From contig NZ_CP034549.1 of NCBI RefSeq assembly GCF_003966335.1, positions 1,260,001 through 1,292,000 on the forward strand: DNA of 32,000 nt. The letters run 5' to 3'. A model generated the notes under the pieces. The model was given only the letters and a program-made list of their open reading frames with translations, did not search any database and was not told the origin of the DNA. The position numbers and the translations under genes are program-made. The DNA comes from Nonlabens ponticola (lineage in GTDB: Bacteria; Bacteroidota; Bacteroidia; Flavobacteriales; Flavobacteriaceae). Of this stretch, positions 1 to 31,548 are shown piece by piece (the first letter of the stretch is position 1; each line of letters begins with the position of its first letter).

Positions 1-816
1 TGCTTGGTATAATTTCATGGTCTCCATAGCTTCTTTCACATCATGAACACGCAATATGCTAGCCCCATTGAGTAGGCAGGCCATATGTAGCGCAGTCGTA
101 CCGTTGAGTGCGACGGCAGCATCAGTTCCTAGCGTCTTGTAGATCATGGATTTTCTGGAAACGCCCGCCAATAAAGGTACACCATGAGATAGTAGCAATT
201 CTTGATGGCTAAAGAGTTCAAAGTTTTGAGCTGTGGTTTTGGCAAATCCATAACCTGGATCAATGATAATATCGTGAATGCCGTGACTCCGAGCCATTGC
301 GATACGTTCGGCAAAATAGCGATTGATGTCTATGATGAGATCGTCGTAATCAGTCAGCGTTTTCATGGTTTGCGGCGTTCCACGCATGTGCATCATGATG
401 TAAGGCACCTTATGTTTTCCAACGGTTTCCATCATTTTGCGATCTAGTTGTCCAGCACTTATATCGTTGACAATGTCAATGTTGTGTTGTAGAGCTGTTT
501 TGATTACGCTTTCGCGAAAGCTGTCACAACTAATCATCGAGTCAGGAAAATTCCTTTTGACCAGCTCAATGATCGGGATAACACGTTGCTGCTCAACACT
601 GGCAGAAATATCAGTGCCATCAGGACGGCTGCTGTAACCACCTATGTCGATAAATGTCGCGCCATCGTGCAACATTTTTTCTACCTGCTGCAGCACGTCG
701 CTATCATTCTTAAGTTTGCCACCATCATAAAAAGAATCTGGCGTGACGTTGACGATGCCCATGACGCGTGGCGTGGAAAGGTCAACAAGGCTGCCGCGGC
801 AATTTATGGTGTGCAT
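1..816 (-). CDS. folP: Dihydropteroate synthase, 3' end cut by window edge
   Basis: Not in the ORF track because no stop lies in the window. Reverse-strand translation from ATG (814-816) gives MHTINCRGSLVDLSTPRVMGIVNVTPDSFYDGGK...DIGGYSSRPDG...DPGYGFAKT...AGVSRKSMI...RVHDVKE, which are classic pterin-binding DHPS motifs. The short + strand ORFs at 202-837 are antisense shadows. Confidence 0.9.
   Translation of the reverse strand, partial: MHTINCRGSLVDLSTPRVMGIVNVTPDSFYDGGKLKNDSDVLQQVEKMLHDGATFIDIGGYSSRPDGTDISASVEQQRVIPIIELVKRNFPDSMISCDSFRESVIKTALQHNIDIVNDISAGQLDRKMMETVGKHKVPYIMMHMRGTPQTMKTLTDYDDLIIDINRYFAERIAMARSHGIHDIIIDPGYGFAKTTAQNFELFSHQELLLSHGVPLLAGVSRKSMIYKTLGTDAAVALNGTTALHMACLLNGASILRVHDVKEAMETMKLYQA
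508..521. repeat. GCTTTCGCGAAAGC palindrome, copy 1 (inside folP, read as SFRES)
   Basis: Exact 14/14. Flank on + strand is ATTAC-motif. Confidence 0.95.
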
Positions 817-869
817 GGTCTAGGCAAATTGAAATAGAAAGGCGAAATTTACGCAAAATACAACCGTCC

Positions 870-1406
870 ATGAGTGCTACCAGCCAGCAATATGATGCCG
901 TTATCGCCACCTGCCGCGAGCTTTTTATCAATAAAATGAAAGATTATGGTGCGGCCTGGCGCATCCTGCGATTACCATCGCTCACAGACCAGATTTTCAT
1001 AAAAGCACAACGCATACGAGGCCTGCAAACCCTAGCCGAATCCAAGGTCGATGAAGGACAGGAAAGTGAATTTATAGGCATCATCAACTATAGCATCATG
1101 GCGCTGATCCAGCTAGAAAAAGGCGTGGTAGAACAACCAGATCTTGATGTTGCCACGGCAACCGAATTATACGACCAGCAAATGGCGATCACCAAACAAC
1201 TCATGATGGACAAAAATCACGATTACGGTGAGGCCTGGCGCGGCATGCGTGTGAGTTCGCTAACTGACTTGATCTTGCAAAAACTATTGCGCGTCAAGCA
1301 AATTGAGGACAATGCTGGTAAAACTATTGTAAGTGAAGGCCTGGATGCCAACTATCAGGATATGGTCAACTATGCGGTTTTTGCGATGATACATATGGGT
1401 GCGTGA
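870..1406 (+). CDS. DUF1599-family protein with two tandem copies of the domain
   Basis: ORF 768-1406. I prefer the in-frame ATG at 870 (MSATSQQYDAV) because 768 overlaps the folP start. Internal duplication is visible: KDYGAAWRILRLPSLTDQIFIKAQRIRGL versus HDYGEAWRGMRVSSLTDLILQKLLRVKQI. Divergent folP neighbour, as in many Bacteroidota. Confidence 0.8.
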   Translation: MSATSQQYDAVIATCRELFINKMKDYGAAWRILRLPSLTDQIFIKAQRIRGLQTLAESKVDEGQESEFIGIINYSIMALIQLEKGVVEQPDLDVATATELYDQQMAITKQLMMDKNHDYGEAWRGMRVSSLTDLILQKLLRVKQIEDNAGKTIVSEGLDANYQDMVNYAVFAMIHMGA

Positions 1407-1822
1407 TGAGAAACGGTGTCAAGAATTTCATGATCGCATGTGCGGTAGGCACAATCATTGGCTGCTACTCACCTGACTCTGATTTTGATGGCACATGGTA
1501 TTATGAGGATGCAACCCATTCTATGACTCTTGAATTGAAACAAGAAAAAGATAGCTTGATAGGTCATCACTGTTTAGTAATAGGTAAACAAGGTAAATTC
1601 ATCGATTGTGCTGACGATAATAAAATATCAGTCAAGGGAATTTACAACAAGGATAAACAGGCTTTTGAATTAGAAATAGTAAGCGAGTACTTATATGAGG
1701 ACACTCTTAAAGGTTATTTAAAAGCCGATGTAAAAGATCAGTTGTTATGGCAAACTACGAGTGAAAAGTTAGTTGAAGGAAGATTGCCAAAGCGTTTGAT
1801 ACTTAAGTCAATACAAGAATGA
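1403..1822 (+). CDS. Hypothetical lipoprotein
   Basis: 139-aa ORF. N-terminus FMIACAVGTIIGC has a lipobox-like cysteine. ATGA start/stop overlap with the upstream gene. Low GC. No family recognised. Confidence 0.55.
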   Translation: MMRNGVKNFMIACAVGTIIGCYSPDSDFDGTWYYEDATHSMTLELKQEKDSLIGHHCLVIGKQGKFIDCADDNKISVKGIYNKDKQAFELEIVSEYLYEDTLKGYLKADVKDQLLWQTTSEKLVEGRLPKRLILKSIQE

Positions 1823-2376
1823 TACTGTTGGCTTTAAAAGGATTAAATACAATTTCACCTCTAATTTTGGCTAGAGTTCTTTTAATCAGTCTTATGGTTA
1901 ATTCAGTTGCTGCTCAAGGCATAGTTTCTGATTGGGCTAGAGATTTTGAAGAGGTTATTTCCGCACAAAATAGAATCACAGTTCACAATTACTATATCGA
2001 TGAAATATTGGATTTTGAACGGCATGTACGTTCTATTGACAGATTAGGATTGGAGACCAACACGGTATATTTACAGTTTTTCTCACAAATTAATGCAACC
2101 TTGATTTTGGAATTGAATGGTATACCAATACCCAGTATTGAGGTTGACACGAGAGTAATTAAGGGTAATGGTTTTCCAGACATGATTTGGTATCCCATAA
2201 AAATACCTGAAGGTGAAACGAGTGCTATCTCAAAAGTTTCAAGTGTTGAGTATGGTAGCTTTGAGACTAAATTACGCCACGATAGACCCATGCTGTACTT
2301 AAAGCATGTGGAAGGTGATTGGTATTTAGAGCATACTACAGTGTTCAGGCTCGCACCATTCTTCTTTACTTACTGA
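1819..2376 (+). CDS. Hypothetical secreted or membrane-anchored protein
   Basis: 185-aa ORF. Hydrophobic N-terminus ending SVAAQG. ATGA overlap with the upstream gene. Low GC. No family recognised. Confidence 0.5.
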   Translation: MILLALKGLNTISPLILARVLLISLMVNSVAAQGIVSDWARDFEEVISAQNRITVHNYYIDEILDFERHVRSIDRLGLETNTVYLQFFSQINATLILELNGIPIPSIEVDTRVIKGNGFPDMIWYPIKIPEGETSAISKVSSVEYGSFETKLRHDRPMLYLKHVEGDWYLEHTTVFRLAPFFFTY

Positions 2377-3781: not shown

Positions 3782-3795
3782 GCTTTCGCGAAAGC
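3782..3795. repeat. GCTTTCGCGAAAGC palindrome, copy 2 (convergent intergenic csaA/M14)
   Basis: Exact 14/14, followed by GTAAT. Confidence 0.95.
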
Positions 3796-3948: not shown

Positions 3949-6488
3949 TACATCGCCTTACTGAAGAAAATAGCGTTCATCAACAGCTTGTTGGTTCCAT
4001 ACCAAAAAGCCCTGAAGTTGGTGTTGTCTGTAAAACCGATGACCTCGCCACGGCCGTAGCTGTTATGCTTGAACGGAACGGTGTTTTTCAAGGCCTCTAG
4101 ATTAGGCTTAGAAATATAACCAGCCATAAGCGGCTCGTTAGTGTACTTAATAGGATTGCGATAAGAAACACTATCTGCCTCTACAAACAAGGTCGTGTTG
4201 CGGAACATAGGCAGCTGTTCATCCTTATAACCAAAAGCAATAGGGTGCGAGCGGTCCAGTCTAGTCTCAAAAATAGCACCGCCTATAACTTGAGCGCCGT
4301 TGAAATTGCTGCGCTGCTCAAAAGTCACATCTTTAGCAGGATTTTCGGTTTCCTTAAAAGTCAGCTGCAATAGTTTCTCTCTGGACATCCATCTCAACCC
4401 ATTGCGATATCCTATAAGTGTACCACCAGCTCGAGTCCAAGATTTAAGTTTGCTTACAACATCTTCTTCTGGACCACCATAAGTTGCAGGAAAGATAATG
4501 GTGCTGTACTTGCTCAGGTCATATCGAGATAGGTTTTCCAGCTGCAATTTGGTCACCACCATATCATAGCGTTGGTCCATCAAGTGCCAAATCTCACCAG
4601 CATCGTACGGATTGATTCCGTCGCCCACGACCAGTGCGATGTTAGGTTTATCCAGCGATACAAATGAATTGGATCCCAAATCAATACCAGTCGTCAAACC
4701 CGTAGTTACAGAAACTACTTCTACATTATTGTCATCTGAGAGCTCGTACAATCTCTTGTTAAGCTCTTGAGCATTCATTTTTTGAGCACTTACGGGTATC
4801 ATGATGGTCCCATAATCATAAGACTGGCCAGCAAGATCAAAAGGTTGCATGGCCACCTTGGCTCTGATGCCAGCGTTGAGAATATTGCTCAGCACTTTGG
4901 GTGCGCCATACTCATTCCAGCGCATGAGGTAGGCATATTGTGATACGGGTAGTGCTTTGCGAGCAATCGTATTTCGAGCTGTGTCCAGTTTACCAGTCTC
5001 CTTATCTAGCGATATTGTTCTTCCAGCTTCCGCACCACGGGCGTTTAAGCTGTAATCCATATCAAACGCTAGTGGAAACGTCCAGGCGCTTATGTCATAG
5101 AACAAGCTGTCCTGAAAAGTGGTGATCTTCTGGAACATCGCATCGACCAGCTTGCTTTTGGTTTGTGTTCTAGGAATCATGTAGGCATATCCAGCTTTAT
5201 ACTTCTTGCCATCTATGGTAGCATCGCTTTTAAGTTCCTGCACTTTGATATCGTGTCTTAATAGTATTTCGGCTAGCGCATCAGTACGGCCGCTGTCTGT
5301 ATAATCGCCAAAGATGATGTTCCCGGATTTCTGATTGCTGCGCACCTGATCATAGAAGTCGGCTTGATAATTCATGAGTTTATCACGCATTTGGTAACTG
5401 GCTTCTAGCGTACTCATGGCAGCCGTCAACTGATTGCGTATGGTAAACGGGAAAGTCAGGACGCCATTTACGGAATTCTGTGCGTGTCCTCTAGAGCTCG
5501 CTTGTTCAAAAAGAATCCCAACGCTACCATTAACATCTGGAAAGGTGGATCCTTTACCATAATAAAAGTCATCAAAACTCTCTTCGGTATAATAAAAGGA
5601 ACCAATTTTATCTAGCGCTGCAGCGTGATAATTCCCCATTTCTTTGGTCAGATCTTGATTTATTTGTGGCGTCAATGGATTAGTCCTAGACGGTATTCCT
5701 GGCTGAAAAAAGAAAGAACTATTGGTGCCCATCTCGTGATGATCGGTAAGCACATTAGGCATCCACTGATTAAAACTGGCGATGCGCGCTCGTGATTCTG
5801 GTAATTGTACTGGCAACCAATCGCGGTTCATGTCAAACCAATAGTGGTTGGTACGACCACCAGGCCAGACCTCGTCATATTCACGGTCGTTGCCGTCAGG
5901 ATTGATGTTTTCGCTTTTGTGTTGATTCACCCAACCTGCAAAACGTTGCAGGCCATCTGGATTAAAACTAGGATCTAACAAAATCACTACATCGTCTAGT
6001 TTTTCCAAGGTCTCTGCATCTTGAGAAGCCGCTAGATGATAGGCATAGAGTAGCGCAGCGTTGGATCCACTAGGCTCGTTACCGTGAATGGAAAATCCTT
6101 GATAGATCACTACAGGTGCAGCGTCATTACTTGCGCCCGTGATGCGTTGCTGGCGCTGTTCTTTAATCTGATCGATGCGTGCATGGTTTGCTGGCGATGT
6201 GATGGTCAACAAGTACAGCGGTCTATCTTCATAGGTGGTGCCTCGATTCTCGATCGTTATGCGATCACTAGCATCCGCAAGGGCTAGCATATACTGCGAT
6301 AATTTATCGTGTGTGACATGCCATTTGCCTGGAACATAACCTATAACTTCTGCTGGTGTTGCGATGTTTGGATTGTAATTGTTGCTGGCTGGTAGGTAGT
6401 AATCTAATTGCGGATCAACGGTGACTTGAGCTTGTACCGCTTTCGCGAAAGCTAAAACCATCAAAATCCCTACTATTAAATGTCTCAT
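3948..6488 (-). CDS. Secreted M14-family zinc carboxypeptidase, large multi-domain
   Basis: 846 aa. Signal peptide MRHLIVGILMVLAFAKAVQAQ. HGNEPSG zinc-ligand motif and a downstream HHEMG region typical of M14. Confidence 0.85.
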   Translation of the reverse strand: MRHLIVGILMVLAFAKAVQAQVTVDPQLDYYLPASNNYNPNIATPAEVIGYVPGKWHVTHDKLSQYMLALADASDRITIENRGTTYEDRPLYLLTITSPANHARIDQIKEQRQQRITGASNDAAPVVIYQGFSIHGNEPSGSNAALLYAYHLAASQDAETLEKLDDVVILLDPSFNPDGLQRFAGWVNQHKSENINPDGNDREYDEVWPGGRTNHYWFDMNRDWLPVQLPESRARIASFNQWMPNVLTDHHEMGTNSSFFFQPGIPSRTNPLTPQINQDLTKEMGNYHAAALDKIGSFYYTEESFDDFYYGKGSTFPDVNGSVGILFEQASSRGHAQNSVNGVLTFPFTIRNQLTAAMSTLEASYQMRDKLMNYQADFYDQVRSNQKSGNIIFGDYTDSGRTDALAEILLRHDIKVQELKSDATIDGKKYKAGYAYMIPRTQTKSKLVDAMFQKITTFQDSLFYDISAWTFPLAFDMDYSLNARGAEAGRTISLDKETGKLDTARNTIARKALPVSQYAYLMRWNEYGAPKVLSNILNAGIRAKVAMQPFDLAGQSYDYGTIMIPVSAQKMNAQELNKRLYELSDDNNVEVVSVTTGLTTGIDLGSNSFVSLDKPNIALVVGDGINPYDAGEIWHLMDQRYDMVVTKLQLENLSRYDLSKYSTIIFPATYGGPEEDVVSKLKSWTRAGGTLIGYRNGLRWMSREKLLQLTFKETENPAKDVTFEQRSNFNGAQVIGGAIFETRLDRSHPIAFGYKDEQLPMFRNTTLFVEADSVSYRNPIKYTNEPLMAGYISKPNLEALKNTVPFKHNSYGRGEVIGFTDNTNFRAFWYGTNKLLMNAIFFSKAM
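6439..6452. repeat. GCTTTCGCGAAAGC palindrome, copy 3 (M14 peptidase signal peptide, AFAKA)
   Basis: Exact 14/14. Confidence 0.95.
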
Positions 6489-8894: not shown

Positions 8895-9998
8895 ATGTCT
8901 CAACAACAATTTACGACTCTGGATCAAATAATCAATCAGGATCCCGTATTTGGACAACTGTCCTTTAATGACCATGAACAAGTTGTGTTTTGCAATGACA
9001 AAGATACAGGTTTAAAGGCCATCATAGGAATTCATAATACGGTGTTAGGCCCAGCTTTAGGTGGCACCAGAATGTGGAATTATGACAATGAGTGGTCTGC
9101 ACTCAATGACGCGTTAAGGTTGTCACGTGGGATGACTTATAAAAGTGCGATTACTGGACTTAATCTAGGTGGTGGCAAGGCCGTGATTATAGGCGATGCA
9201 AAAACACAGAAAACGCCAGAAATGATGCGTAAGTTCGGTGAATTTGTGCATTCTTTGAGCGGTAAATACATCACTGCCGAAGACGTAGGAATGACTACAG
9301 AAGACATGGATACCGTGAGAGAAGTCACTCCTTATGTTACAGGAATCTCACAGGAAAAAGGTGGTGCAGGAAATCCATCGCCCATCACGGCCTACGGTGT
9401 TTTTATGGGAATGAAAGCAGCGGCTCAATATAAATTTGGCACTGATGTTCTTGAGGATAAAGTGATTTATGTAGAAGGTATAGGTAATGTAGGTGAGACG
9501 CTGGTCGAGCATTTAACTGAAGAAGGCGCCAAGGTCTTCATCGCAGATATCAATCGCGAACGGCTGGAAGAGGTGAGAGCAAAGTATGGCGCGACCATCT
9601 ATGAAGGATCAGACCTGCATGCAGAGCCTATGGATATCTATGCACCTTGTGCGCTGGGCGCGACTGTCAATGATAATAGCATCAATAAGTTTCAGGCCAG
9701 TGTTATCGCTGGTGCCGCAAACAATCAGTTGGCAGATGAGCATAAGCACGGCATGTTATTGCAGCAGCGTGGTATCGTCTATGCGCCAGATTTCTTGATC
9801 AACGCAGGTGGAATCATCAATGTCTATGCAGAGCTGGAAGGCTATGACCGCAACGAGATCATGCGCAAGACAGAGAATATCTATACCACGACGCTGGAAA
9901 TCTTTAATAAAGCACAGGAAAATGGCGTGACTACACACCTTGCAGCTCTTCAAATCGCCGAGGCTCGTATCAATGCCAGGAGAAAGGACAACCACTAG
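8895..9998 (+). CDS. Leu/Phe/Val (Glu/Leu/Phe/Val family) amino-acid dehydrogenase
   Basis: 367 aa. GPALGGTRMW, LGGGKAVIIGD and GIGNVG Rossmann motifs. Confidence 0.85.
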   Translation: MSQQQFTTLDQIINQDPVFGQLSFNDHEQVVFCNDKDTGLKAIIGIHNTVLGPALGGTRMWNYDNEWSALNDALRLSRGMTYKSAITGLNLGGGKAVIIGDAKTQKTPEMMRKFGEFVHSLSGKYITAEDVGMTTEDMDTVREVTPYVTGISQEKGGAGNPSPITAYGVFMGMKAAAQYKFGTDVLEDKVIYVEGIGNVGETLVEHLTEEGAKVFIADINRERLEEVRAKYGATIYEGSDLHAEPMDIYAPCALGATVNDNSINKFQASVIAGAANNQLADEHKHGMLLQQRGIVYAPDFLINAGGIINVYAELEGYDRNEIMRKTENIYTTTLEIFNKAQENGVTTHLAALQIAEARINARRKDNH

Positions 9999-10021: not shown

Positions 10022-10050
10022 TTGATTGCAGTGGGCTTGTTGTAATTTTG
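10022..10050 (+). promoter_or_regulatory. Putative promoter for nusB
   Basis: TTG (10022-10024), 18-nt spacer, TAATTTTG (10043-10050) matching TAnnTTTG. Its last G is the first base of palindrome copy 4. Confidence 0.4.
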
Positions 10051-10063
10051 CTTTCGCGAAAGC
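10050..10063. repeat. GCTTTCGCGAAAGC palindrome, copy 4 (intergenic, abuts putative nusB -7 box)
   Basis: Exact 14/14. Confidence 0.95.
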
Positions 10064-12575: not shown

Positions 12576-14510
12576 ATGAATCAGGAACGAGTTGTCATTG
12601 AGAACGTCCAGCCGCAAATCAACGCTGGTAGACATCCCATAAAACGCATTAGTCAGGAAACGGTCCATGTGAGCGCAAATGTTTTGGTGGACGGTCACGA
12701 TATCGTTCAGGCCTCTGTCATGTACAAACATGAAAAGGCTCGCAAGTGGCAAGAGAACAGACTTTTAGATCAAGGCAATGACCTTTGGAGTGGTTCTTTC
12801 CAAGTAGAAAAACTGGGTTCTTATGAATATAAACTTGTGGGTTGGGTCGATTACGCACTCAATTGGCAGCATGGAATTTCCCGCAAACTGGCAGATGGTC
12901 AACACGTGAAAAGTGAGTTGCTTGATGGAGTGATTCATTTGGAGCACGCTTTCGCGAAAGCAAACAAAACAGAGTCATCATACCTTAAAAAAACCATCGA
13001 ACTATTTCAAAACGATGCTGACTATGACGCCGCAGTTCAGATAGCCACATCAAGCGAGTTGCACGACATTTTCTACAAATATCCAGCTAGATTATTCCTA
13101 GCCAGCAGCGATAGTTATACGTGTACTGTCGATAGAAAAAAGGCACGATTCTCAACCTGGTATGAGTTTTTCCCACGCAGTGCAGGCAGCAATTATGAGC
13201 ACGGTACATTCAAGGATTGTGAGAAACTGTTGCCATACGTGCAGGAAATGGGTTTTGATACCTTGTATTTTCCACCAGTTCATCCAGTTGGAGACGTAAA
13301 TAGAAAGGGAAAGAACAATACTACGACCGCGCACGGCGACGATGTAGGTTCTTGTTGGGGTATCGGTTCTAAGCATGGTGGTCATATGGCGTTGCATCCA
13401 CATCTGGGTAGTGAGGAAGATTTTAAGGAACTTATCCAGCAAGCCAAATCCTTAGGTATAGAAGTGTCAATGGATTATGCATTACAAGCAGCACCAGATC
13501 ATCCATGGGTAAAGAAACACAAAGCGTGGTTCCGTTGGAGACCTGATGGTACGGTTCAGTATGCAGAAAATCCGCCGAAAAAATATCAGGATATTCTACC
13601 TATTTATTTCGAGACGCCAGACTGGAAAAATCTTTGGAAAGAATTGCTGAAAATCGCTTTGTATTGGGTAGAAGAGTTTGATATCAAAGTATTTAGAGTT
13701 GATAATCCGCATACCAAACCTTTTCATTTTTGGGAATACTTGATAAGCGAGGTCAAGAAAAAGCACAACGATGTGATCTTTCTTGCTGAGGCTTTTACCA
13801 AACCTAAGGTGATGCAGCAGCTTGCCAAGGTAGGCTTCCAGCAATCCTACACTTATTTCACCTGGCGCAACAACAAACACGAGCTCACCGAGTATTTGAC
13901 AGAGCTTACCCAGAATCAAGAACGTGAATACATGCAGCCCAATTTCTGGCCCAACACTCCAGATATCAATCCATGGGCACTGCAGTCGGGAAATGAGAGT
14001 GTGCATTTACAACGCTATGCACTAGCCGCAACTTTAAGTTCCAGTATCGGGATTTATGGGCCTGTTTTTGAGCAAATGATATCGAGTGCCTTGCCAGGCA
14101 AGGAAGAATATCTAGATTCAGAAAAGTTCCAGATTGCTAACTACGACTGGAGTTTACGCAACAAACTCACACTCTTGATCACCAAAATCAATCAAGCGCG
14201 CCATGATTTGCCAGCCTTGCAACAAACCAATAACCTACAGTTTTTGCACAATGATAATGACCAGCTATTGACCTATTATAAGTGGAGTGATAATCATCAA
14301 AGTGAGGTGATCGTGGCGGTAAACTTGGATCCACATTATGAGCAGGAAAGTTGGGTTGCCATGCCACTAGAGCGCATGCAAATAGATGAGCATCATACCT
14401 ACACCGTTAAAGATGTGATCACAGGTAGCAGTTACAACTGGAAAGGCACGCACAATTTTGTAAAACTCAACCCAGTTTTGCCGTTTCACATTTTTGAGGT
14501 GCAGCGATAG
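12576..14510 (+). CDS. glgE: Alpha-1,4-glucan:maltose-1-phosphate maltosyltransferase
   Basis: 644 aa. N-terminus RVVIENVQPQINAGRHPIKR and FRVDNPHTKPFHFWE match GlgE hallmarks (GH13_3). Confidence 0.85.
   Translation: MNQERVVIENVQPQINAGRHPIKRISQETVHVSANVLVDGHDIVQASVMYKHEKARKWQENRLLDQGNDLWSGSFQVEKLGSYEYKLVGWVDYALNWQHGISRKLADGQHVKSELLDGVIHLEHAFAKANKTESSYLKKTIELFQNDADYDAAVQIATSSELHDIFYKYPARLFLASSDSYTCTVDRKKARFSTWYEFFPRSAGSNYEHGTFKDCEKLLPYVQEMGFDTLYFPPVHPVGDVNRKGKNNTTTAHGDDVGSCWGIGSKHGGHMALHPHLGSEEDFKELIQQAKSLGIEVSMDYALQAAPDHPWVKKHKAWFRWRPDGTVQYAENPPKKYQDILPIYFETPDWKNLWKELLKIALYWVEEFDIKVFRVDNPHTKPFHFWEYLISEVKKKHNDVIFLAEAFTKPKVMQQLAKVGFQQSYTYFTWRNNKHELTEYLTELTQNQEREYMQPNFWPNTPDINPWALQSGNESVHLQRYALAATLSSSIGIYGPVFEQMISSALPGKEEYLDSEKFQIANYDWSLRNKLTLLITKINQARHDLPALQQTNNLQFLHNDNDQLLTYYKWSDNHQSEVIVAVNLDPHYEQESWVAMPLERMQIDEHHTYTVKDVITGSSYNWKGTHNFVKLNPVLPFHIFEVQR
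12948..12961. repeat. GCTTTCGCGAAAGC palindrome, copy 5 (inside glgE, AFAKA)
   Basis: Exact 14/14. Confidence 0.95.
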
Positions 14511-14594
14511 ATATAGAAAGCAAATCTGAGGTATTGAAAACCTACAGAATTATTTATATCTTCAAGGACACTACAATCAACCACCTGACCTACC

Positions 14595-16217
14595 ATGTCT
14601 AAAGTAAAACTGACCAATCCCACGCGATGGGAAAACCTGCTGGATGATCCAGCTTTCAAGAAACAATTGACTGAAGATGTACTAGAGAACTATGTGGTCT
14701 CACAACGATGGTACGGTGGCAAGAGTAGTACACTCAAATACCTAGAGATTAGTGAGTTTTTTACCATAGCGCATAAAGGCGATCACTTTTATGGCTTGCT
14801 GCTTGAAGTCAATTTTAAAGAAGCTTTTTACCAGCATTATTTTCTACCGCTAGGCTTTGTGGAGGACAAAAAGGCGGCTGGCGATGGTCTTATTGCGCCA
14901 GTTCAATTAGGTGAGAAGACAGGTTACTTGGTTGATGCTTTATACCTCGATTCCTTTAGAAAAGTTCTCTTTGAAAAAATTATTGAGTCGCATCCTGTAG
15001 AAGGATTGGGTACTATAACTTTTCACGCAGGCGAGCAACTGGAAGAAACGGAGTATATAAGCAGCAGATTCCTGGGTGCAGAGCAATCCAATACCAGCAT
15101 CATTTTTAATGATAAACACATTATCAAATTCTTCCGCAGGATTTATAGCAGTACCAATCCAGATTACCAGATTTGCCGCTACCTGACTGAGCATACCAAC
15201 TTTGACAGATCGCCTACCTATACCGGTTCGATTAATCTAAATATTGTAAAGCGGCACGATATCACGCTGGCATTAATGCAAAAACTGGTGCCCAATGACG
15301 GTGATGGTTGGGAATGGATGTTGGGAGAATTAAAGACTGTTTTTAGCACGCTTTCGCGAAAGCATATTGACCCAAACACCTTGCCAGAAGTACAATTATT
15401 TTCTAGGCTCAAGCTGCGCGAGGTACCGCACGAGATCGTCGACTGGACTGGGCTGGATTTGTTGAAACGCATCAGGACACTTGCGTTGCGCACGGCACAA
15501 TTTCACGTGGCGATAGGAGCAGAGCGCAATGATTTGAAATTTACAGCAGATAAGTACAATGGAGATTATAACGTATGGCTTAAGAATAGGTTGCTGTACA
15601 TGTTCCAAAATCGACTGAATACGGTAGAGAACAACCTACATAAATTGAAAGATGAAGCGCTGGAATTGGCTCAAGAATTATTGGAGCGCAAGAATGAGGT
15701 GCGTGCGCGATTTATAGAATTTGACTGGCACCACATGAAAGGTGAGCGCATTCGTATCCATGGTGATTACCATCTTGGGCAAGTGCTGGTAGATGGCGAG
15801 GATTTTTATTTACTGGATTTTGAAGGCGAGCCTGAAAGTACTATTCGTGATCGCAAGGTGAAGCAAATGCCACAAAAGGATCTTGCAGGAATGTTCCGCA
15901 GTTTTCATTATGCCATTTATTCAACCATTTTTGAGCATCGTGATCAACTAGGTTTACCAATAGAAGATTTGTATAAAGCGGGCGAACTGTTGTACAAGTA
16001 TTTGATTTCCATATTTCTAGACACTTATCTGCATCATGTACATAACAACAACTTAAACATAGGCTACCAGAAAGAGGTCAATTTCTTGTTACAATTTTGT
16101 CTGCTTGAAAAGGCAATTTATGAACTGGGATACGAATTCAATTCTAGACCTAGCTGGGCGATCATACCACTGCGAGGTATTCAAAGCATTATGAATCACA
16201 AGCAGCAAAAAGTCTAA
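14595..16217 (+). CDS. mak: Maltokinase (Mak/Pep2-like, stand-alone, not fused to TreS)
   Basis: 540 aa. IHGDYHLGQVLV...FYLLDFEGEP matches the aminoglycoside-phosphotransferase-like Mak catalytic motifs. Lies between glgE and glgB. Confidence 0.7.
   Translation: MSKVKLTNPTRWENLLDDPAFKKQLTEDVLENYVVSQRWYGGKSSTLKYLEISEFFTIAHKGDHFYGLLLEVNFKEAFYQHYFLPLGFVEDKKAAGDGLIAPVQLGEKTGYLVDALYLDSFRKVLFEKIIESHPVEGLGTITFHAGEQLEETEYISSRFLGAEQSNTSIIFNDKHIIKFFRRIYSSTNPDYQICRYLTEHTNFDRSPTYTGSINLNIVKRHDITLALMQKLVPNDGDGWEWMLGELKTVFSTLSRKHIDPNTLPEVQLFSRLKLREVPHEIVDWTGLDLLKRIRTLALRTAQFHVAIGAERNDLKFTADKYNGDYNVWLKNRLLYMFQNRLNTVENNLHKLKDEALELAQELLERKNEVRARFIEFDWHHMKGERIRIHGDYHLGQVLVDGEDFYLLDFEGEPESTIRDRKVKQMPQKDLAGMFRSFHYAIYSTIFEHRDQLGLPIEDLYKAGELLYKYLISIFLDTYLHHVHNNNLNIGYQKEVNFLLQFCLLEKAIYELGYEFNSRPSWAIIPLRGIQSIMNHKQQKV
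15350..15363. repeat. GCTTTCGCGAAAGC palindrome, copy 6 (inside maltokinase, LSRK)
   Basis: Exact 14/14. Confidence 0.95.
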
Positions 16218-16261
16218 TTTACATATTGCAATCTCTAAAATCTTCAATCAATAAACCAACC

Positions 16262-18831: not shown

Positions 18832-18855
18832 AATAATTGTTGCTATCAAAATAAT

Positions 18856-18888
18856 AAAAGCTCAGTCTGATAAAGGCTGAGCTTTTTA
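18856..18888 (+). terminator. Rho-independent terminator after the GlcG-like gene
   Basis: aaaAGCTCAGTC-tgataaa-GGCTGAGCTtttt. Confidence 0.75.
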
Positions 18889-18905
18889 TGATTCATAATC
18901 TGTCA

Positions 18906-18938
18906 CAAAAAAACGCGACCATAAAAATATGATCGCGC
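18906..18938 (-). terminator. Putative terminator after the DUF4382 gene
   Basis: cgcgaccat / atgatcgcg stem with one mismatch. A 7-8 nt U-run follows on the minus strand. Confidence 0.5.
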
Positions 18939-18961
18939 TTTGATAAGTTTTTGATCTCTAC

Positions 18962-19828
18962 TTAATCTTGATCAAAGTCCACTAATTCAAGTGTAGTCAC
19001 TGCACCTGTGGAGACCTCTACATCGTTTACTACGATAGTACGAGTTTCTGTAGTGTCATCGTCTTCATCATTATCATTGTCACTACCAGGAACTTCTTGT
19101 TCAAAAGTCACTGTGTAGGTTCCAGCTGGTACACCACTCAGGCGATAATTACCATCTGCATTGGTAAAGGTCGTGATCTCGTCAACACCATTGCTGGCTG
19201 TCACAAGCGTTTGAACATCAATAGGGTTTACAGATCCTGCGATCGCGCCAGACGCAGCCTCAAGCTGTGTGCGTATGACTGGTTTTAATGAAAATCCGCC
19301 ATTACCTTGTCTTACGATCGACTTATCGGCATCAAAATCCAAAACGAAATTGTAAAGAATACCGCTTTCAATCTCTTCGTTTACCTGCAGTTTTAATCCA
19401 GATTGTTGTGCACTAGGTGTTCTCAAAGGGAAAGATTCACCATCAATCACAACCGAATTGTCATCACCTAAAATCAGGCGTATCTGGCTTATTCTACCCG
19501 CAGGAATTTCATCGTCTGCAAGGATCACGTTCTCACCACCAGTAAGTTCCAGTAGGTCATAAACGCCGGTGTTATCCATGTTGATGATAACCGTGTTCTC
19601 ATCTTCATCGATATCGTCAATGTCGTCGCTGTCATTATCATCGTCCACATCTCCATTGTACTTTACCACAATTCCTTGAACATCAACAAAAACATTGTCA
19701 TAATCGCCAGGAGCATCGACCAATTTAAAAGTAACACGCGCGGTGCCATCATTGTTGTCATCATCGCTACAGGAAACAATTCCTATAAACATCAATGGAA
19801 TTAACATCCATTTCAATACATTTTTCAT
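18962..19828 (-). CDS. DUF4382-like lipoprotein with C-terminal carboxypeptidase-regulatory-like domain and poly-acidic tracts
   Basis: ORF 18962-19858. ATG 19828 (MKNVLKWMLIPLMFIGIVSCSDD, lipobox) preferred. TFKLVDAPGDYDNVFVDVQGIVV is the DUF4382 opening. GNYRLSGVPAGTYTVTF is CarboxypepD_reg-like. Confidence 0.6.
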   Translation of the reverse strand: MKNVLKWMLIPLMFIGIVSCSDDDNNDGTARVTFKLVDAPGDYDNVFVDVQGIVVKYNGDVDDDNDSDDIDDIDEDENTVIINMDNTGVYDLLELTGGENVILADDEIPAGRISQIRLILGDDNSVVIDGESFPLRTPSAQQSGLKLQVNEEIESGILYNFVLDFDADKSIVRQGNGGFSLKPVIRTQLEAASGAIAGSVNPIDVQTLVTASNGVDEITTFTNADGNYRLSGVPAGTYTVTFEQEVPGSDNDNDEDDDTTETRTIVVNDVEVSTGAVTTLELVDFDQD

Positions 19829-20014
19829 AATTAGGGTTTTAATTAAAAATTTAGGCAATTCTAAGGGCGAACTGCGCTATCAAGATTCGGCTTAACTTTC
19901 TTTAACTGCGATCTTAACACGTCATTAAACATCAGAAATTAAGATATATTGCTCAATAGCCCGTATTTCTTAGGGTGATAAGCATTTGTTGTATTAGAAT
20001 GATGTTTTTGTTTA

Positions 20015-20028
20015 TGCTTTCGCGAAAG
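20015..20028. repeat. GCTTTCGCGAAAGC palindrome, copy 7 (divergent intergenic DUF4382/GH31)
   Basis: Exact 14/14, followed by GTAAT. Confidence 0.95.
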
Positions 20029-20169
20029 CGTAATTATCGACAAACTGCACCGCAAACCTTTGCGCAACTAGATCACCATCAAGCATGAGAACTAGTGGGA
20101 TTTTATTATTTTACCAAGCACTAGCAGTAGGGTTAATTACTGCTTCAAAATACTGAATATCATCATTTT

Positions 20170-22572
20170 ATGATTACAAATACTGAATTAAATAATCAGG
20201 GAAATGTCTTCCCTGGAAAGTTGACGTCCTTTGATCACACGGTCGATACCTTAATGTTTTCAACAGATAATGGCGTGATACTGCAATTGCAGGTGCTGCG
20301 TGACAGTGTGCTACGTTTTAGGTACGGTGTAGGCGGCAAGATGGAAGATGATTTTTCCTATGCCATCGATCATAGCGGTAATCGTGGTTACAATAAGTTA
20401 GAAGTAAGCGAGCATAAAGATTATTATGAGGTGCAAACCAGTAAGGTGCTGTGCCGCATTTCTAAAGCAGATTTGCGCTCACGCATCTTTGATATAGATG
20501 GCAAGATCATTTGTGAGGATGAGCTAGGCTTTCACTATGAAGAGAGCTATCAATACGGCGGTGAGATCGTCAAGATGTCCAAAAAAGCACAGCCTGGCGA
20601 GAGCTACTACGGCCTAGGCGACAAGCCAGCAGATATGAACATGCGCGCCAAGCGTTTTGAGCTTTGGGGTACTGATCAATATGCTTTTGGAAAACAAACA
20701 GACCCACTTTATAAGAATGTACCATTTTACGTAGGATTGCAGAATAAAACGGCCTACGGTATTTTCTTTGACAATACATTTAGATCCTATTTTGATTTTG
20801 CCCACGAGCGTCATCACGTGACCAGCTTCTGGGCGCAAGGTGGTTCCATGGACTATTATTTTATCTACGGTCCAGATGTGAATAGCGTCGTGAGCGGTTA
20901 TACAGAGTTGACTGGTAAACCCGAGTTGCCACCATTGTGGGCGCTGGGTTATCACCAGTGTAAGTGGAGTTACTATCCTGAAAGCAACGTGAGAGAAATC
21001 GCGGCAAAATTCCGCGAGCTGCAGATTCCTTGTGATGCGATCTATCTGGATATTGATTACATGGATGGATTCCGTTGTTTTACATGGGATAATGATAAGT
21101 TCCCAGATCCTACCAAAATGATTAGCGATTTGCGGGAAGATGGTTTCAAGACCATCGCCATCATCGATCCAGGAATTAAGGTAGATCCAGATTATAGTGT
21201 CTACCAAGAAGCCATGGACAACGATTACTTCTGTAAGCGTGCCGACGGTCCTTACATGAAAGGTAAAGTGTGGCCAGGCCAGTGCTATTTCCCAGATTAC
21301 ACCAATCCTGAAGTGCGTGAATGGTGGGCTGGATTGTTTAAAGGCTTGATTGCTGATAATGGATTATCGGGTATCTGGAATGATATGAACGAGCCTGCGG
21401 TCATGGAAGTGCCTAATAAGACGTTTCCAGACGACGTGCGCCACGATTATGACGGGCATCCTTGCTCGCATAGAAAAGCGCACAACATCTATGGAATGCA
21501 AATGGCACGCGCGACGTATGAAGGCGTGAAGAAATTTATTTACCCTAAGCGCCCTTTTGTAATTACACGATCTGCCTATTCTGGAACGCAGCGTTATACC
21601 AGCAGCTGGTTTGGCGATAATGTAGCGACTTGGGAACACTTGAGCATTGCAAATATCCAGGCACAACGCATGGCGCTATCAGGAATGTCCTTTGCAGGAT
21701 CTGATATTGGTGGCTTTGCAGAACAGCCTACAGGCGAGCTTTTTGCCAGATGGATTGCGCTAGGTGTGTTCCATCCGTTTTGTAGGGTGCATTCCAGTGG
21801 TGATCATGGCGATCAAGAACCATGGACTTTTGACGAGAACGTTACCAACATCACAAGAAAGTTTGTGGAGTTGCGATATAAGTTATTGCCATACCTATAC
21901 ACCACTTTCTGGCAATATGCTGAAGAAGGCACACCAATGCTGAAGTCTCTAGTGATCTATGATCAAGAAGATGCTCAAACACATTACCGCAACGATGAGT
22001 TCATTTTTGGTGATCAGATACTGGTTTGTCCAGTATTGGAGCCTAATGCTAAAGGTCGTCGCATGTACATACCGCGAGGCGAGTGGTACAATTACTGGAC
22101 TCGTGAGACCATCACAGGTGGTCGTGAGGAATGGGTAGATGCAGATATTGACAGCATTCCGCTATTTGTGAAATCTGGTTCAATCATACCGCGTTATCCA
22201 GTGATGCAGTATGTAGGCGAGAAGAAGATTGAGTTCCTGACGCTAGACGTTTATTACACCATAGGCAAAGAAAAGTCCATCGTGTATGAAGATGCTAATG
22301 ATGGTTACGATTATAAGAAAGGCCGTTTCAGTTTACGTAATTTGAAGTTCAAAGGCTCTGAAAAAGAGATGGTGATTTCACAATACAAAGACGGTAAATT
22401 CAAAACGGAATATGAAACACTGCGTTTTAATTTCATCGGTTTGCCATTTGAGATTGATTATGTTGAGGTTGATAATGCAAAAATCCCGCTAGAAGAATTG
22501 AAGTATGATGTCAAGACCCAAACCATGTACATCCACAAAGAATTTAGTGAGTTACATGTGGTAGGGAAATAG
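20170..22572 (+). CDS. GH31 alpha-glucosidase
   Basis: 800 aa. YHQCKWSY, DAIYLDIDYMD and GIWNDMNEP (nucleophile region), FAGSDIGGF. Confidence 0.9.
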   Translation: MITNTELNNQGNVFPGKLTSFDHTVDTLMFSTDNGVILQLQVLRDSVLRFRYGVGGKMEDDFSYAIDHSGNRGYNKLEVSEHKDYYEVQTSKVLCRISKADLRSRIFDIDGKIICEDELGFHYEESYQYGGEIVKMSKKAQPGESYYGLGDKPADMNMRAKRFELWGTDQYAFGKQTDPLYKNVPFYVGLQNKTAYGIFFDNTFRSYFDFAHERHHVTSFWAQGGSMDYYFIYGPDVNSVVSGYTELTGKPELPPLWALGYHQCKWSYYPESNVREIAAKFRELQIPCDAIYLDIDYMDGFRCFTWDNDKFPDPTKMISDLREDGFKTIAIIDPGIKVDPDYSVYQEAMDNDYFCKRADGPYMKGKVWPGQCYFPDYTNPEVREWWAGLFKGLIADNGLSGIWNDMNEPAVMEVPNKTFPDDVRHDYDGHPCSHRKAHNIYGMQMARATYEGVKKFIYPKRPFVITRSAYSGTQRYTSSWFGDNVATWEHLSIANIQAQRMALSGMSFAGSDIGGFAEQPTGELFARWIALGVFHPFCRVHSSGDHGDQEPWTFDENVTNITRKFVELRYKLLPYLYTTFWQYAEEGTPMLKSLVIYDQEDAQTHYRNDEFIFGDQILVCPVLEPNAKGRRMYIPRGEWYNYWTRETITGGREEWVDADIDSIPLFVKSGSIIPRYPVMQYVGEKKIEFLTLDVYYTIGKEKSIVYEDANDGYDYKKGRFSLRNLKFKGSEKEMVISQYKDGKFKTEYETLRFNFIGLPFEIDYVEVDNAKIPLEELKYDVKTQTMYIHKEFSELHVVGK

Positions 22573-22648: not shown

Positions 22649-22685
22649 CGCTTTCCTGCCTGCCGGCAGGCAGGCGCGAAAGCGT
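22649..22685. repeat. Split copy of the palindrome carrying a nested 20-bp GC-rich palindrome
   Basis: CGCTTTC-CTGCCTGCCGGCAGGCAGG-CGCGAAAGCG. The inner CCTGCCTGCCGGCAGGCAGG (22655-22674) is itself a perfect palindrome. Followed by TAAAT. Confidence 0.9.
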
Positions 22686-23828: not shown

Positions 23829-25061
23829 CTATTTCTTCCGTGCCACCAACTCTGCTATGCGCACGATGACCTTACTGGCTGCGATCATACTTTCTACAGG
23901 CACATATTCATAAGGCCCGTGAAAATTATGTCCACCTGCAAAAATATTGGGACAAGGCAAACCCATATAGCTTAGTTGCGATCCATCAGTACCACCTCGT
24001 ATGGGTTTAATGATGGGTTCAATATCTAGGTCTTTCATGGCCTGTTCTGCAATTTCGACGATGTGCATGACGGGCTCGACCTTTTCTTTCATGTTAAAAT
24101 ATTGATCCTTGATCTCGATGCTTACGGCATCTGTATCATATTGTGCGTTGAGGTCGGCCACTAGCTTGCGCATCATTTCCTTGCGAGCCTCAAAATGATC
24201 CTTGTCATGATCGCGTATGATATAGTGCAATTTGGTTTCCTCAACGGCACCTTCCATATCGTGTAAGTGGAAAAATCCTTGATAGTCCTCTGTATGTTCT
24301 GGTGTTTCCAGTCGTGGCAGCGACCCTATAAACTCTGTCGCAATGTACATTGAATTGATCATCTTGCCTTTGGCATATCCTGGATGTACAATCTTGCCTT
24401 TGACCGTTACTACGGCACCAGCAGCGTTGAAATTCTCATATTCCAGCTCACCTATCTGACTACCGTCCATAGTGTAAGCCCAATCTGCACCAAATTTTGC
24501 CACCTCAAATTTGTGCGCGCCACGACCTATTTCCTCATCTGGTGTAAAGCCTATTTTAATGTCGCCATGCTTGATTTCTGGATGATCCATGAGGTGTTTT
24601 GCCGCTGTCATGATCTCGGTTATTCCAGCCTTATCGTCTGCGGCAAGCAGTGTAGTACCGTCAGTTGTGATGATGGTCTGGCCTTTGTATTGCTTTAAAT
24701 CTTCAAAATAGTCAGGCGATAGGATCAGATCGCTGCCTTTGAGAGGTATATCATCGCCGTCATAGTTTTCTATGATTTGCGGTTTGATGTTAGCACCCGT
24801 AAAGTCTGGCGTGCTGTCAAAATGTGATATAAAACCTATGGTAGGTGCTTCACGATCAAGGTTTGATGGTATAGTCGCCATCACATAGGCATTCTCATCA
24901 ATCGATGCATCACTCAATCCCATGTCCAATAATTCCTGATGCAGCTTGCGCGCAAGATTCCATTGTTTTTCTGTACTAGGCGTGGTATCGCTGGCTGGAT
25001 CAGACTCTGTATCAATGGTGATGTAACTTATAAATCTATCGGTAATCTCTTGGTGTGTCAT
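23829..25061 (-). CDS. pepT: Peptidase T (tripeptide aminopeptidase, M20B)
   Basis: 410 aa. RFISYITIDTESD, GFISHFDSTPD, LLAADDKAGI, FTPDEEIGRGA, MDGS..GELEYENFNAA. Confidence 0.9.
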   Translation of the reverse strand: MTHQEITDRFISYITIDTESDPASDTTPSTEKQWNLARKLHQELLDMGLSDASIDENAYVMATIPSNLDREAPTIGFISHFDSTPDFTGANIKPQIIENYDGDDIPLKGSDLILSPDYFEDLKQYKGQTIITTDGTTLLAADDKAGITEIMTAAKHLMDHPEIKHGDIKIGFTPDEEIGRGAHKFEVAKFGADWAYTMDGSQIGELEYENFNAAGAVVTVKGKIVHPGYAKGKMINSMYIATEFIGSLPRLETPEHTEDYQGFFHLHDMEGAVEETKLHYIIRDHDKDHFEARKEMMRKLVADLNAQYDTDAVSIEIKDQYFNMKEKVEPVMHIVEIAEQAMKDLDIEPIIKPIRGGTDGSQLSYMGLPCPNIFAGGHNFHGPYEYVPVESMIAASKVIVRIAELVARKK

Positions 25062-25169
25062 GATGTGCTATGAAAAATCTCGAATTTTGAATGGTGTCAA
25101 GATAACACTTGCACGTATTTGGACATGCTAGGATCAGCTTAAAATTTGCAGGATGTTGTTGTTGATTAC

Positions 25170-25183
25170 GCTTTCGCGAAAGC
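25170..25183. repeat. GCTTTCGCGAAAGC palindrome, copy 8 (intergenic upstream of pepT)
   Basis: Exact 14/14, preceded by ATTAC. Confidence 0.95.
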
Positions 25184-25207
25184 TAAATAGCCACCAAAAT
25201 TCTAACG

Positions 25208-30663: not shown

Positions 30664-30753
30664 GTCTATCCTTTGATTTGAACAAAAATAGGCAATTGAA
30701 AATTCTAGCCGTCGATGCTTTGTAAGGCGATACCACTTTAGCAGTTAAAACGG

Positions 30754-30761
30754 TAAATTTG
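30754..30761 (+). promoter_or_regulatory. Putative -7 box for the Kdo-kinase-like gene
   Basis: TAAATTTG matches TAnnTTTG, 28 nt before the ATG. Confidence 0.3.
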
Positions 30762-30789
30762 CAGGCAATTCATTTAATGTTGTCGATGT

Positions 30790-31548
30790 ATGTCTATGGT
30801 AGAGAGGTTTGAGAGTATTACGCTTTCGCGAAAGCGTGTTCACCACATTCTACAAAACTTCAAAAAATCGTCTCAACAACTGGGCGACGACCGTAACGCG
30901 ATTAGGATAGTGGAAGATAAAGGCAAAAAACTCGTTGTAAAGTCATTCAAGATTCCAAATGCCGTCAACAAATTGGCCTACCGATTTTTAAGAGATAGCA
31001 AGGCAAAAAGATCCTATGAAAATGCAGTCTATCTACAGCAACATAATATAGGAACCCCAGCACCACTGGCTTATCTAGAGCGTGTCGATACGTTGTCTTT
31101 TAAAGATAGTTATTACATAAGCGAGTACGCTGAGCATGATTATACCTATAGAGAATTGATCAACGATAATACTATAGAAAATAAGGAAGAAGTCCTGAAA
31201 GCCTTTACAGCTTTCATGTTCAAGATGCATGAGGCGCATATTTATTTCCTGGATCATTCACCTGGCAACACGTTAATCAAAAAAGTAGGAGATAGCTATG
31301 AGTTTTTCCTGGTGGATCTCAACCGCATGAAATTCTATGATATACCCTATGAAGATCGATTGAAAAACTTTGAACGCCTGTCACCTAAAAAATGGATGTA
31401 CGACATCATGGGTGCAGAGTATGCTAGACTTTCAGGAAAGGATCCAGCTGAATCTATTGCTACTATGTGGTCTTATACACAGAAGTTTCAAGAGAAATAT
31501 CATCGCAAGAAGCGATTCAAAAAAAAGCTCAAGAGTATATTCTCGTAA
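30790..31548 (+). CDS. Lipopolysaccharide (Kdo/WaaP-type) kinase family protein
   Basis: 252 aa. VKSFKIPNAVNKLAYRFLRDSKAKRSYENA and LDHSPGNTLI...FLVDLNRM are a protein-kinase-like catalytic loop, as in Kdo-domain proteins. Confidence 0.65.
   Translation: MSMVERFESITLSRKRVHHILQNFKKSSQQLGDDRNAIRIVEDKGKKLVVKSFKIPNAVNKLAYRFLRDSKAKRSYENAVYLQQHNIGTPAPLAYLERVDTLSFKDSYYISEYAEHDYTYRELINDNTIENKEEVLKAFTAFMFKMHEAHIYFLDHSPGNTLIKKVGDSYEFFLVDLNRMKFYDIPYEDRLKNFERLSPKKWMYDIMGAEYARLSGKDPAESIATMWSYTQKFQEKYHRKKRFKKKLKSIFS
30822..30835. repeat. GCTTTCGCGAAAGC palindrome, copy 9 (5' end of Kdo-kinase-like CDS, LSRK)
   Basis: Exact 14/14. Extended to 18 bp as ACGCTTTCGCGAAAGCGT, preceded by TT. Confidence 0.95.

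Follow-up and report, generated by a model that had tools for sequence, protein, structure and literature searches.

A highly iterated, regularly spaced 14-bp palindrome in the genomes of Nonlabens and Dokdonia

Why should a perfect 14-bp palindrome recur at nearly even intervals along a stretch of flavobacterial DNA, inside genes as well as between them? The question is raised by 32,000 nucleotides of Nonlabens ponticola (contig NZ_CP034549.1, positions 1,260,001 to 1,292,000), hereafter the window, which contain nine exact copies of the palindrome GCTTTCGCGAAAGC, hereafter the motif (Table 1). An earlier sequence-only reading of the window had drawn attention to this motif and judged its iteration to be beyond chance. 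Dinucleotide shuffles of the window support this judgment, since they give an expectation of 0.01 copies and none of the 100 shuffles reached nine. No copy with one or two mismatches was present in the window, and sites with three mismatches (five, for about 1.5 expected at three mismatches or fewer) were barely above chance. The analysis reported here establishes that the motif is a real and clade-specific element, which is conserved in position, regularly spaced, of the duplex type, and independent of transcription.

Abundance of the motif and its clade distribution

The 18-mer TTACGCTTTCGCGAAAGC was scanned over one genome per species (185,579 species), and at least 120 matching 8-kb tiles were obtained. 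Among the matches listed, nearly all named records were from Dokdonia or Nonlabens, and the others were unnamed metagenome-assembled genomes of Flavobacteriaceae. As the sequence-only reading had proposed, the motif was counted against a Markov expectation, here a 3rd-order model applied to a set of about 0.94 Mb of clade sequence (120 tiles and the window). Exact copies numbered 233 for 0 expected. One-mismatch copies (20 for 0 expected) and two-mismatch copies (14 for 1 expected) were far fewer. Beyond the copy that seeded each tile, the density was about 0.10–0.13 per kb and was equal in Dokdonia and Nonlabens. Extrapolation from the window and the tiles suggests that each genome harbors several hundred to about 900 copies. 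C preceded the core in about 88% of the copies, on the side that was not used for selection, and the same extension was found in both genera. The usual core is therefore the 16-mer CGCTTTCGCGAAAGCG. No second iterated 12-mer was found in the clade sequence. In Aureisphaera and Winogradskyella, the syntenic regions (22 kb each) contained no copy of the motif and no alternative iterated word or 'dialect' palindrome. Two of the matches listed fell outside the clade, L202 (labelled uncultured Polaribacter) and L219 (Muricauda sp. TY007). Each contains one genic copy in 8 kb, for which chance, mis-binning, and transfer from Dokdonia or Nonlabens are possible explanations.

About 57% of all copies are located inside long open reading frames (ORFs), in all three frames: 62 copies encode AFAKA (frame 0), 39 encode RFRES (frame 1), and 31 encode [TS]LSRK (frame 2). 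About 43% are located in the non-coding tenth of the genome, in agreement with the earlier proposal that the motif is tolerated in genes and enriched between them. The positions initially reported for the window were correct with the exception of two that were off by one nucleotide, the start of the copy at 20016 (given as 20015) and that of a tenth copy, which is split (22651, given as 22650). Likewise, the assignment of five copies to genes is correct. Those of folP, glgE, and the maltokinase gene are interior, that of the M14 peptidase gene is in the signal peptide, and the fifth, of a Kdo-kinase-like gene, is at the very 5' edge of the ORF, where it begins 32 nt past the first ATG.

Table 1. 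Copies of the motif in the N. ponticola window. Positions are window coordinates; each exact copy is 14 bp long.
Feature	Position	Context	Encoded peptide or sequence
Exact copy	508..521	Inside folP, minus-strand coding sequence leaving the window at its start	ISCDSFRESV stretch
Exact copy	3782..3795	Spacer between convergent genes for a tRNA-binding-domain protein (end 3769) and an M14 peptidase (end 3948)	
Exact copy	6439..6452	Signal-peptide codons of the M14 peptidase, minus strand	AFAKA; signal peptide MRHLIVGILMVLAFAKA
Exact copy	10050..10063	Spacer between a Leu/Glu-dehydrogenase-family gene and nusB	
Exact copy	12948..12961	Inside glgE, +372 nt	AFAKA
Exact copy	15350..15363	Inside the maltokinase gene, +755 nt	TLSRK
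Exact copy	20016..20029	Divergent spacer, upstream of a GH31 glycosidase gene	
Split copy	22651..22684	Between convergent genes	GCTTT + CCTGCCTGCCGGCAGGCAGG + CGCGAAAGC
Exact copy	25170..25183	Spacer of two minus-strand genes; M20 peptidase start 109 nt downstream	
Extended element (example)	25151..25202	Plus strand; flanks of this kind on all copies, to ~19 bp per side	...TGTTGTTGTTGATTAC, core, TAAATAGCCACCAAAA...
Exact copy	30822..30835	5' edge of a Kdo/WaaP-kinase-like ORF, or divergent spacer if the true start is downstream	

Conservation, origin, and spacing of the copies

The GlgE sequence encoded in the window is 100% identical to the N. ponticola protein. Syntenic loci were fetched via GlgE orthologues, independently of the motif, from Nonlabens sp. 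YIK11 (L239) and from three further genomes (L240, L241, and L245). Nine of the 11 alignable window sites were identical in the partner genome, compared with 0.9–3.8% of the aligned background 14-mers. The site in the M14 signal peptide is exact in L239 (3320) and L241 (3431). So is the site in the spacer between the Leu-dehydrogenase gene and nusB (L239, 6937; L241, 7099), where the flanks have fully diverged and can no longer be aligned. In the window, the latter copy is inside an ORF extended to a TTG codon, yet it is intergenic according to the nusB calls of the syntenic loci. The glgE site is exact in L241 and L245, differs by one mismatch in L239, and is absent from L240. The maltokinase site is exact in L239, L240, and L241, with the same codons as in the window; its five codons are identical in the four genomes, a match seen in only 15.7% of the codons whose residues are conserved throughout. 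L239 also contains an exact copy (18684) upstream of the GH31 gene, at a distance similar to that of the window copy, and the motif is likewise present at the folP site of locus L226, amid DNA of about 69% identity. These alignments indicate that the motif is kept letter-perfect across species at the DNA level, beyond what background identity and codon conservation provide.

The origin of the genic copies was apparent from comparison with outgroup proteins. The AFAKA sequence encoded by the motif in glgE aligns without gaps to a variable stretch of five residues in some 30 outgroup proteins of equal length, in which its counterparts are, for example, IIDKA, LLKKA, or ILKQA. Similarly, TLSRK of the maltokinase aligns without gaps to NLSDKG and NLEYKN in outgroups, and the Aureisphaera DNA at this site already matches the motif at 8 of 14 positions. 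In glgB of strain YIK11, a lineage-specific site matches the motif at 13 of 14 positions, and other genomes match far less. No insertion relative to the orthologues was seen at motif sites. The gap-free alignments, together with the presence of genic copies in all frames, indicate that the motif arises in place, through point substitution at positions that tolerate it. The glgB site of YIK11 may be a motif in the making. The same one-mismatch variant, GCTTACGCGAAAGC, which encodes AYAKA in place of AFAKA, occurs at two positions of the YIK11 locus (10373 and 14207).

The copies are also regularly spaced. Intervals in the window, with the split copy included, range from 2.4 to 5.7 kb, and their coefficient of variation (0.33) is lower than that produced by random placement (P = 7.5e-4). 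A minimum gap of at least 2.4 kb was not reached in any of 20,000 random-placement trials for the window. In independent tiles, adjacent copies were separated by less than 1 kb in 7 cases for 29 expected, a four-fold depletion, and by 2–4 kb in 57 cases for 31 expected. The same rule applies within long operons, such as the glgE-mak region, and within giant genes, as exemplified by a gene of L240 encoding an adhesin of 2,561 residues, which contains two copies 3.3 kb apart. Thus, the motif is kept at about one copy per 2.4–4.5 kb whatever the gene structure. The longest motif-free gap seen (8 kb) is in L240, downstream of glgB, in a region (16719–21938) containing a bpX0-bpX4/bpMoxR cluster, a MoxR-associated island of Bacteroidota type.

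Placement of the intergenic copies was unrelated to transcription. They are distributed among convergent, divergent, and tandem spacers in proportion to the lengths of these spacers. Association with terminators or promoters was rejected, since the use of each intergenic class matches its share of bases. The flanks are T-rich on the 5' side and A-rich on the 3' side of the motif on either strand, the reverse of a terminator, and the absence of a U-tract reported by the sequence-only reading is confirmed by the lack of a T-run behind the motif. Rfam and tRNA scans gave no match to the motif. The same reading had excluded an array of clustered regularly interspaced short palindromic repeats (CRISPR), and this exclusion stood when tested.

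Anatomy of the extended element

The core CGCTTTCGCGAAAGCG lies within a weak consensus of two-fold symmetry that extends over about 46 bp (see Table 1 for an example). In 194 unbiased half-sites, the 19 nt or so located 5' of the core on each strand are G/T-rich, with a C frequency of at most 0.08. T peaks at positions -4, -7, -10, and -13, G peaks near positions -6, -9, -12, and -16, and the proximal positions show A at -5, T at -3, and A at -2. The resulting half-site consensus is approximately RGnTKKTKnTKATTAC, then GCTTTCG. This profile is not a coding artefact since it is the same in deep-genic and in intergenic copies.

Complementarity between left and right flanks was 1833 within copies, compared with 1842 ± 29 between copies, revealing no covariation. 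None of 15 two-mismatch variants preserved the palindrome. One-mismatch variants gathered at position 5/10, the most variable of all in the clade, and at the outer GC, and the central TCGCGA and the TT/AA pairs were near-invariant. The hairpin formed by the 14-mer is worth just -2.1 kcal/mol, native contexts of 54 nt fold like shuffled sequences (z ~0), and CGCG, which would form the loop, is the least variable part of the motif. A hairpin or cruciform as the conserved feature was therefore rejected on the basis of the covariation test and of the folding energies. Together, the flank, variant, and folding results point to duplex DNA recognized by a symmetric protein making extended contacts, rather than to a hairpin. 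The anatomy of the sequence and its mismatch spectrum fit a duplex palindrome of 12–16 bp whose half-sites a dimer could contact. Avoidance or enrichment of TCGCGA, as expected for the footprint of a restriction-modification system, was also considered and was rejected, since TCGCGA outside the motif is present at its Markov expectation (97 observed for 103 expected).

Several variants were observed. The half-site variant GCTTTCGCGAAAAT, with AT in place of the outer GC at one end, is found in 7 of the 15 two-mismatch copies (L138, L144, L157, L189, L197, and others) and may be a tolerated or an alternative half-site. A single three-mismatch relative, GCTTGCGCGCAAGA, is present near the 5' end of the M20 peptidase gene (window positions 24944–24957); its two inner changes, T5 to G and A10 to C, are symmetric. 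Finally, the split copy is organized as the sequence-only reading had described it. A 20-bp perfect palindrome, CCTGCCTGCCGGCAGGCAGG, is set exactly between the motif arms GCTTT and CGCGAAAGC. The predicted fold of the whole is a strong hairpin (-16.2 kcal/mol, z = -3.9). The inner palindrome occurs once in about 1 Mb of clade sequence, and no family was found for it.

Known systems and candidate functions

Searches of 8 million full texts and of Rfam found no description of the motif, in line with the sequence-only reading, which knew of none, and the genome papers of N. dokdonensis and D. donghaensis do not mention it. The nearest precedents proposed by that reading, HIP1 and uptake sequences, proved to be well chosen. 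HIP1 (GCGATCGC) is the highly iterated palindrome of cyanobacteria, and its function is still debated (PMC4390886, PMC5861425). It is conserved and quasi-periodic, it has recently been reported to boost natural transformation, and both uptake-like and Chi-like mechanisms have been proposed (PMC5861425; bioRxiv 10.1101/2024.09.10.611283; bioRxiv 10.64898/2026.06.24.733823). According to the HIP1 literature, such an abundance of HIP1 is not seen outside cyanobacteria. Like the motif, HIP1 is a perfect palindrome, hugely over-represented and confined to one lineage, that is found in coding as well as non-coding DNA. Further common features are palindromic flanks that extend the repeat in some genomes, conservation of orthologous sites to a degree that codon effects do not explain, and non-random placement along the chromosome. 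The motif differs from HIP1 by its length (14–16 bp versus 8 bp), its unrelated sequence, its host phylum (Bacteroidota versus cyanobacteria), and its density, which is about 3–10 times lower. Its nearest-neighbor spacing is regular at about 3 kb, whereas the periodicity of HIP1 density is 10–90 kb, and its flank consensus of about 46 bp is strand-asymmetric, unlike HIP1.

The DNA uptake sequences (DUS) of Neisseriaceae and the uptake signal sequences (USS) of Pasteurellaceae resemble the motif in other respects. They are present as hundreds to thousands of exact copies, with a core of about 10 nt and weaker flanks, and they are shared across genera. They occupy poorly constrained positions of genes without insertion, are enriched between genes, are spaced more evenly than random, and are found in some resident phages. 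In contrast to the motif, they are asymmetric and 9–12 nt long; their hosts are demonstrably competent, and ComP is the receptor in Neisseria. Thus, the motif is neither HIP1 nor a known uptake sequence, and it looks like an undescribed counterpart of HIP1 and of the uptake sequences of Neisseria and Haemophilus. It stands out by the exact palindrome of 14–16 bp, the asymmetric flank signature of about 46 bp, and the regular spacing of about 3 kb.

In the 35.7-kb genome of the Nonlabens phage P12024S, where ERF and YqaJ recombination genes are present, the phage thus having its own, no copy of the motif is found even at two mismatches, although the density in the host predicts 4–10. A scan of viral contigs with the 14-mer gave mostly single matches attributable to chance, and only contigs with several copies and the flank signature were used; the 18-mer palindrome was found in just two viral contigs. 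Several IMG/VR contigs harbor the motif with its characteristic flanks, at the density and spacing seen in the hosts. They include an HK97-like module of head-tail genes, where 12 kb contain three copies, some of them inside HNH endonuclease and prohead protease genes, a contig of a Mu-like transposable phage, and an integrase-bearing contig. The contigs L040, L023, L045 (IMGVR_UViG_3300039191_000362), L089, L114, and L117 comprise a Mu-like phage and a group of HK97-like siphoviruses. The Mu-like and HK97-like contigs are probably temperate phages of Dokdonia or Nonlabens. The presence of copies in contigs of temperate phages and their absence from P12024S therefore suggest that the motif accumulates in DNA that resides in the chromosome.

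Based on these analogies, we tentatively propose, as the best of the readings weighed here, that the motif may be a tag acting in DNA uptake or recombination, a role that we regard as possible rather than probable. A dimeric, sequence-specific DNA-binding protein would bind the motif as a double-stranded site, and the motif would mark DNA living in the chromosome. Uptake or recombination would favor fragments or recombination substrates that bear the tag, and this preference would both spread and preserve it. A second tag close to the first would bring diminishing returns. By likeness to HIP1, for which a role in DNA exchange has been proposed, and to USS/DUS, for which it has been shown, DNA exchange would be the most likely role. 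Natural competence is on record elsewhere in the Flavobacteriales, in Riemerella and Elizabethkingia. Several considerations weigh against this proposal. No binding protein, methyltransferase, or competence machinery has been identified for the clade, for which no search for partner genes was made. Neither Dokdonia nor Nonlabens is known to us to undergo natural transformation. To our knowledge, uptake sequences are never palindromes, and the exact requirement for 14–16 bp exceeds that of every uptake signal or Chi site known to us. The density is extrapolated from 8-kb tiles that were picked for containing a copy. Finally, regular spacing and positional conservation suit a role in chromosome architecture equally well. 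In broader terms, we are inclined, if only slightly, to believe that the motif belongs to a genome-tagging system unknown until now, in which a dimer would read the 16-bp palindrome and about 15 bp of strand-asymmetric flank of 3-nt periodicity on each side, every 3 kb or so, for the purpose either of discriminating resident from foreign DNA in uptake or recombination, or of delimiting a 3-kb nucleoid unit.

The latter possibility leads to the strongest alternative, in which the motif would be an architecture site for a nucleoid-associated, ParB/Noc/SlmA/MatP-like, or condensin-related dimer, organizing the chromosome in units of about 3 kb or tethering it, with no involvement of DNA exchange. 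We consider this alternative unlikely. In its favor, a palindrome of 14–16 bp has the layout typical of operators bound by dimeric helix-turn-helix proteins, and both the Noc site (ATTTCCCGGGAAAT) and parS are palindromes of this size. Sites for Noc, ParB, SlmA, and MatP are, like the motif, duplex palindromes of 12–16 bp bound by dimers, scattered in genes, and acting at the level of the chromosome. Even spacing of the copies, conservation of orthologous positions, placement independent of transcription units, and the lack of the motif in P12024S would all be expected of such a site, and the periodicity of HIP1 has been read in this way (PMC5861425). However, the known sites are present in tens of copies per genome and are regionally confined, in comparison to the roughly 700–900 copies extrapolated here. 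They are unrelated in sequence to the motif, with a weak similarity to parS or the Noc site limited to 3 of 7 positions per half-site, and no flank signature of 46 bp is known for them. In addition, a purely architectural role leaves unexplained the accumulation of the motif within structural genes of temperate phages.

A second alternative, which appears distinctly improbable, retains recombination in the form of a bidirectional Chi-like signal: a helicase-nuclease resecting from a broken end would recognize the palindrome on arrival from either side and from there on load RecA on the strand located 5' of the motif. RecA binds DNA by triplets and has a preference for G/T. This reading is attractive since the strand 5' of the motif is G/T-rich and C-poor on both sides, with T peaks every 3 nt. 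In addition, one copy per 3–5 kb resembles the density of Chi in E. coli; Chi also occurs in a G/T-rich context and in some phages. The presence of the motif in temperate phages and its absence from P12024S, which has ERF and YqaJ genes of its own, are in line with this reading, and a similar effect has been proposed for HIP1 (bioRxiv 10.1101/2024.09.10.611283). The nature of Chi itself argues to the contrary. Known Chi sites are asymmetric sequences of 5–8 nt, co-oriented with replication, and read as single-stranded DNA by RecBCD or AddAB. A palindrome of 14–16 bp would be unprecedented for Chi, recognition of a single strand gives no reason for palindromy, and the motif, being a perfect palindrome, has no orientation and thus lacks the replication bias of Chi.

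The motif might also be devoid of function and result from biased repair, a methyltransferase and a nuclease of the very-short-patch type converting near-matches into the exact palindrome. The paucity of one- and two-mismatch neighbors relative to exact copies is what such a process would leave. The core contains the palindromes TCGCGA and CGCG, which are typical of methyltransferase sites, and an older model of HIP1 was of this type (PMC4390886). We nonetheless rate biased repair as more doubtful still than the Chi-like signal. We estimate that chance provides well below one one-mismatch precursor of the 14-mer per genome, too few for biased repair by itself to give rise to hundreds of copies. 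As reported above, TCGCGA shows neither enrichment nor avoidance outside the motif. Biased repair predicts neither the regular spacing nor the 46-bp flank consensus, and long-term conservation of position argues for selection, as it does for HIP1 (PMC5861425).

The two remaining explanations are essentially refuted. A small hairpin acting at the RNA level, as a terminator, stabilizer, or processing site, is very improbable. In its favor, a stem of 9 bp is possible in the 22-mer TTACGCTTTCGCGAAAGCGTAA (-7.3 kcal/mol as DNA), and some copies directly follow stop codons (3782 and 25170). Against it, Rfam contains no match, coding sequences harbor about half of the copies, with each of the three frames in use, and the polarity of the flanks (U-rich 5', A-rich 3', on either strand) is opposite to that of a terminator. 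Moreover, neither covariation nor compensatory changes are detected, conservation is highest in CGCG, which would form the loop, and convergent spacers are not favored. Least probable of all is a mobile miniature element, such as a repetitive extragenic palindrome (REP), a miniature inverted-repeat transposable element (MITE), or a Rickettsia palindromic element, of which the motif would be the conserved core. The motif is palindromic and highly repeated and has a weak extended flank consensus, yet genic copies replace residues one for one without change of length relative to outgroup proteins, and orthologous intergenic copies retain the core alone amid unrelated flanks. Terminal repeats, target duplications, and an associated transposase are all absent, and the positions of the sites are stable across species.

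The latter results bear on three points of the sequence-only reading. Its exclusion of a transposon was justified, since the genic copies arose without insertion. The outcome that it had named as a refutation, every copy belonging to a larger, already catalogued REP/MITE family, is contradicted by the gap-free protein alignments and by orthologous spacers that share the core alone. Its comparison with Rickettsia palindromic elements has to be abandoned, since nothing is inserted at motif sites. Both REP/BIME elements and Rickettsia elements are repeated palindromes, and the latter are also found in genes. They differ from the motif in being imperfect palindromes of 30–150 bp that spread by insertion, REPs being moreover extragenic.

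If the motif does serve as a discriminator in uptake or recombination, its palindromic form would be without precedent among uptake or Chi-type signals, and it would be the first such signal in Bacteroidota. HIP1, whose function has been disputed for thirty years, is one of the few known classes of short, exact motifs selected genome-wide, along with Chi, USS/DUS, and architecture-imparting sequences. An independent palindrome in another phylum offers a comparative handle, with the benefit that 14–16 bp is long enough to make every copy unambiguous. The hosts are cultivable model marine bacteria, Dokdonia being a model organism for proteorhodopsin, and precise deletions and bait experiments are straightforward because the motif is conserved at mapped sites. 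The spacing of about 3 kb and the strand-asymmetric flanks of 3-nt periodicity are predictions that any mechanism must explain. In metagenomes, the motif marks the DNA of Dokdonia and Nonlabens and of their temperate phages, and it may be used as a marker for host assignment in viromes. Better genetic tools for these genera could be developed if the motif promotes uptake or recombination.

The loci compared here also differ in gene content. In the window, positions 12576–18160 contain a complete α-glucan operon of the GlgE pathway (glgE, the maltokinase gene, and glgB), with a GH31 glycosidase gene nearby, and the synteny of this region is kept across Nonlabens and in outgroup Flavobacteriaceae. 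Two of the loci differ from the window by small nuclease genes inserted within this syntenic DNA. In L239, the inserted gene encodes a GIY-YIG protein of 103 residues and follows yajC (8895–9206). In L240, a DUF1016/YhcG gene (PD-(D/E)XK-like) is inserted between the maltokinase gene and glgB (13643–14713).

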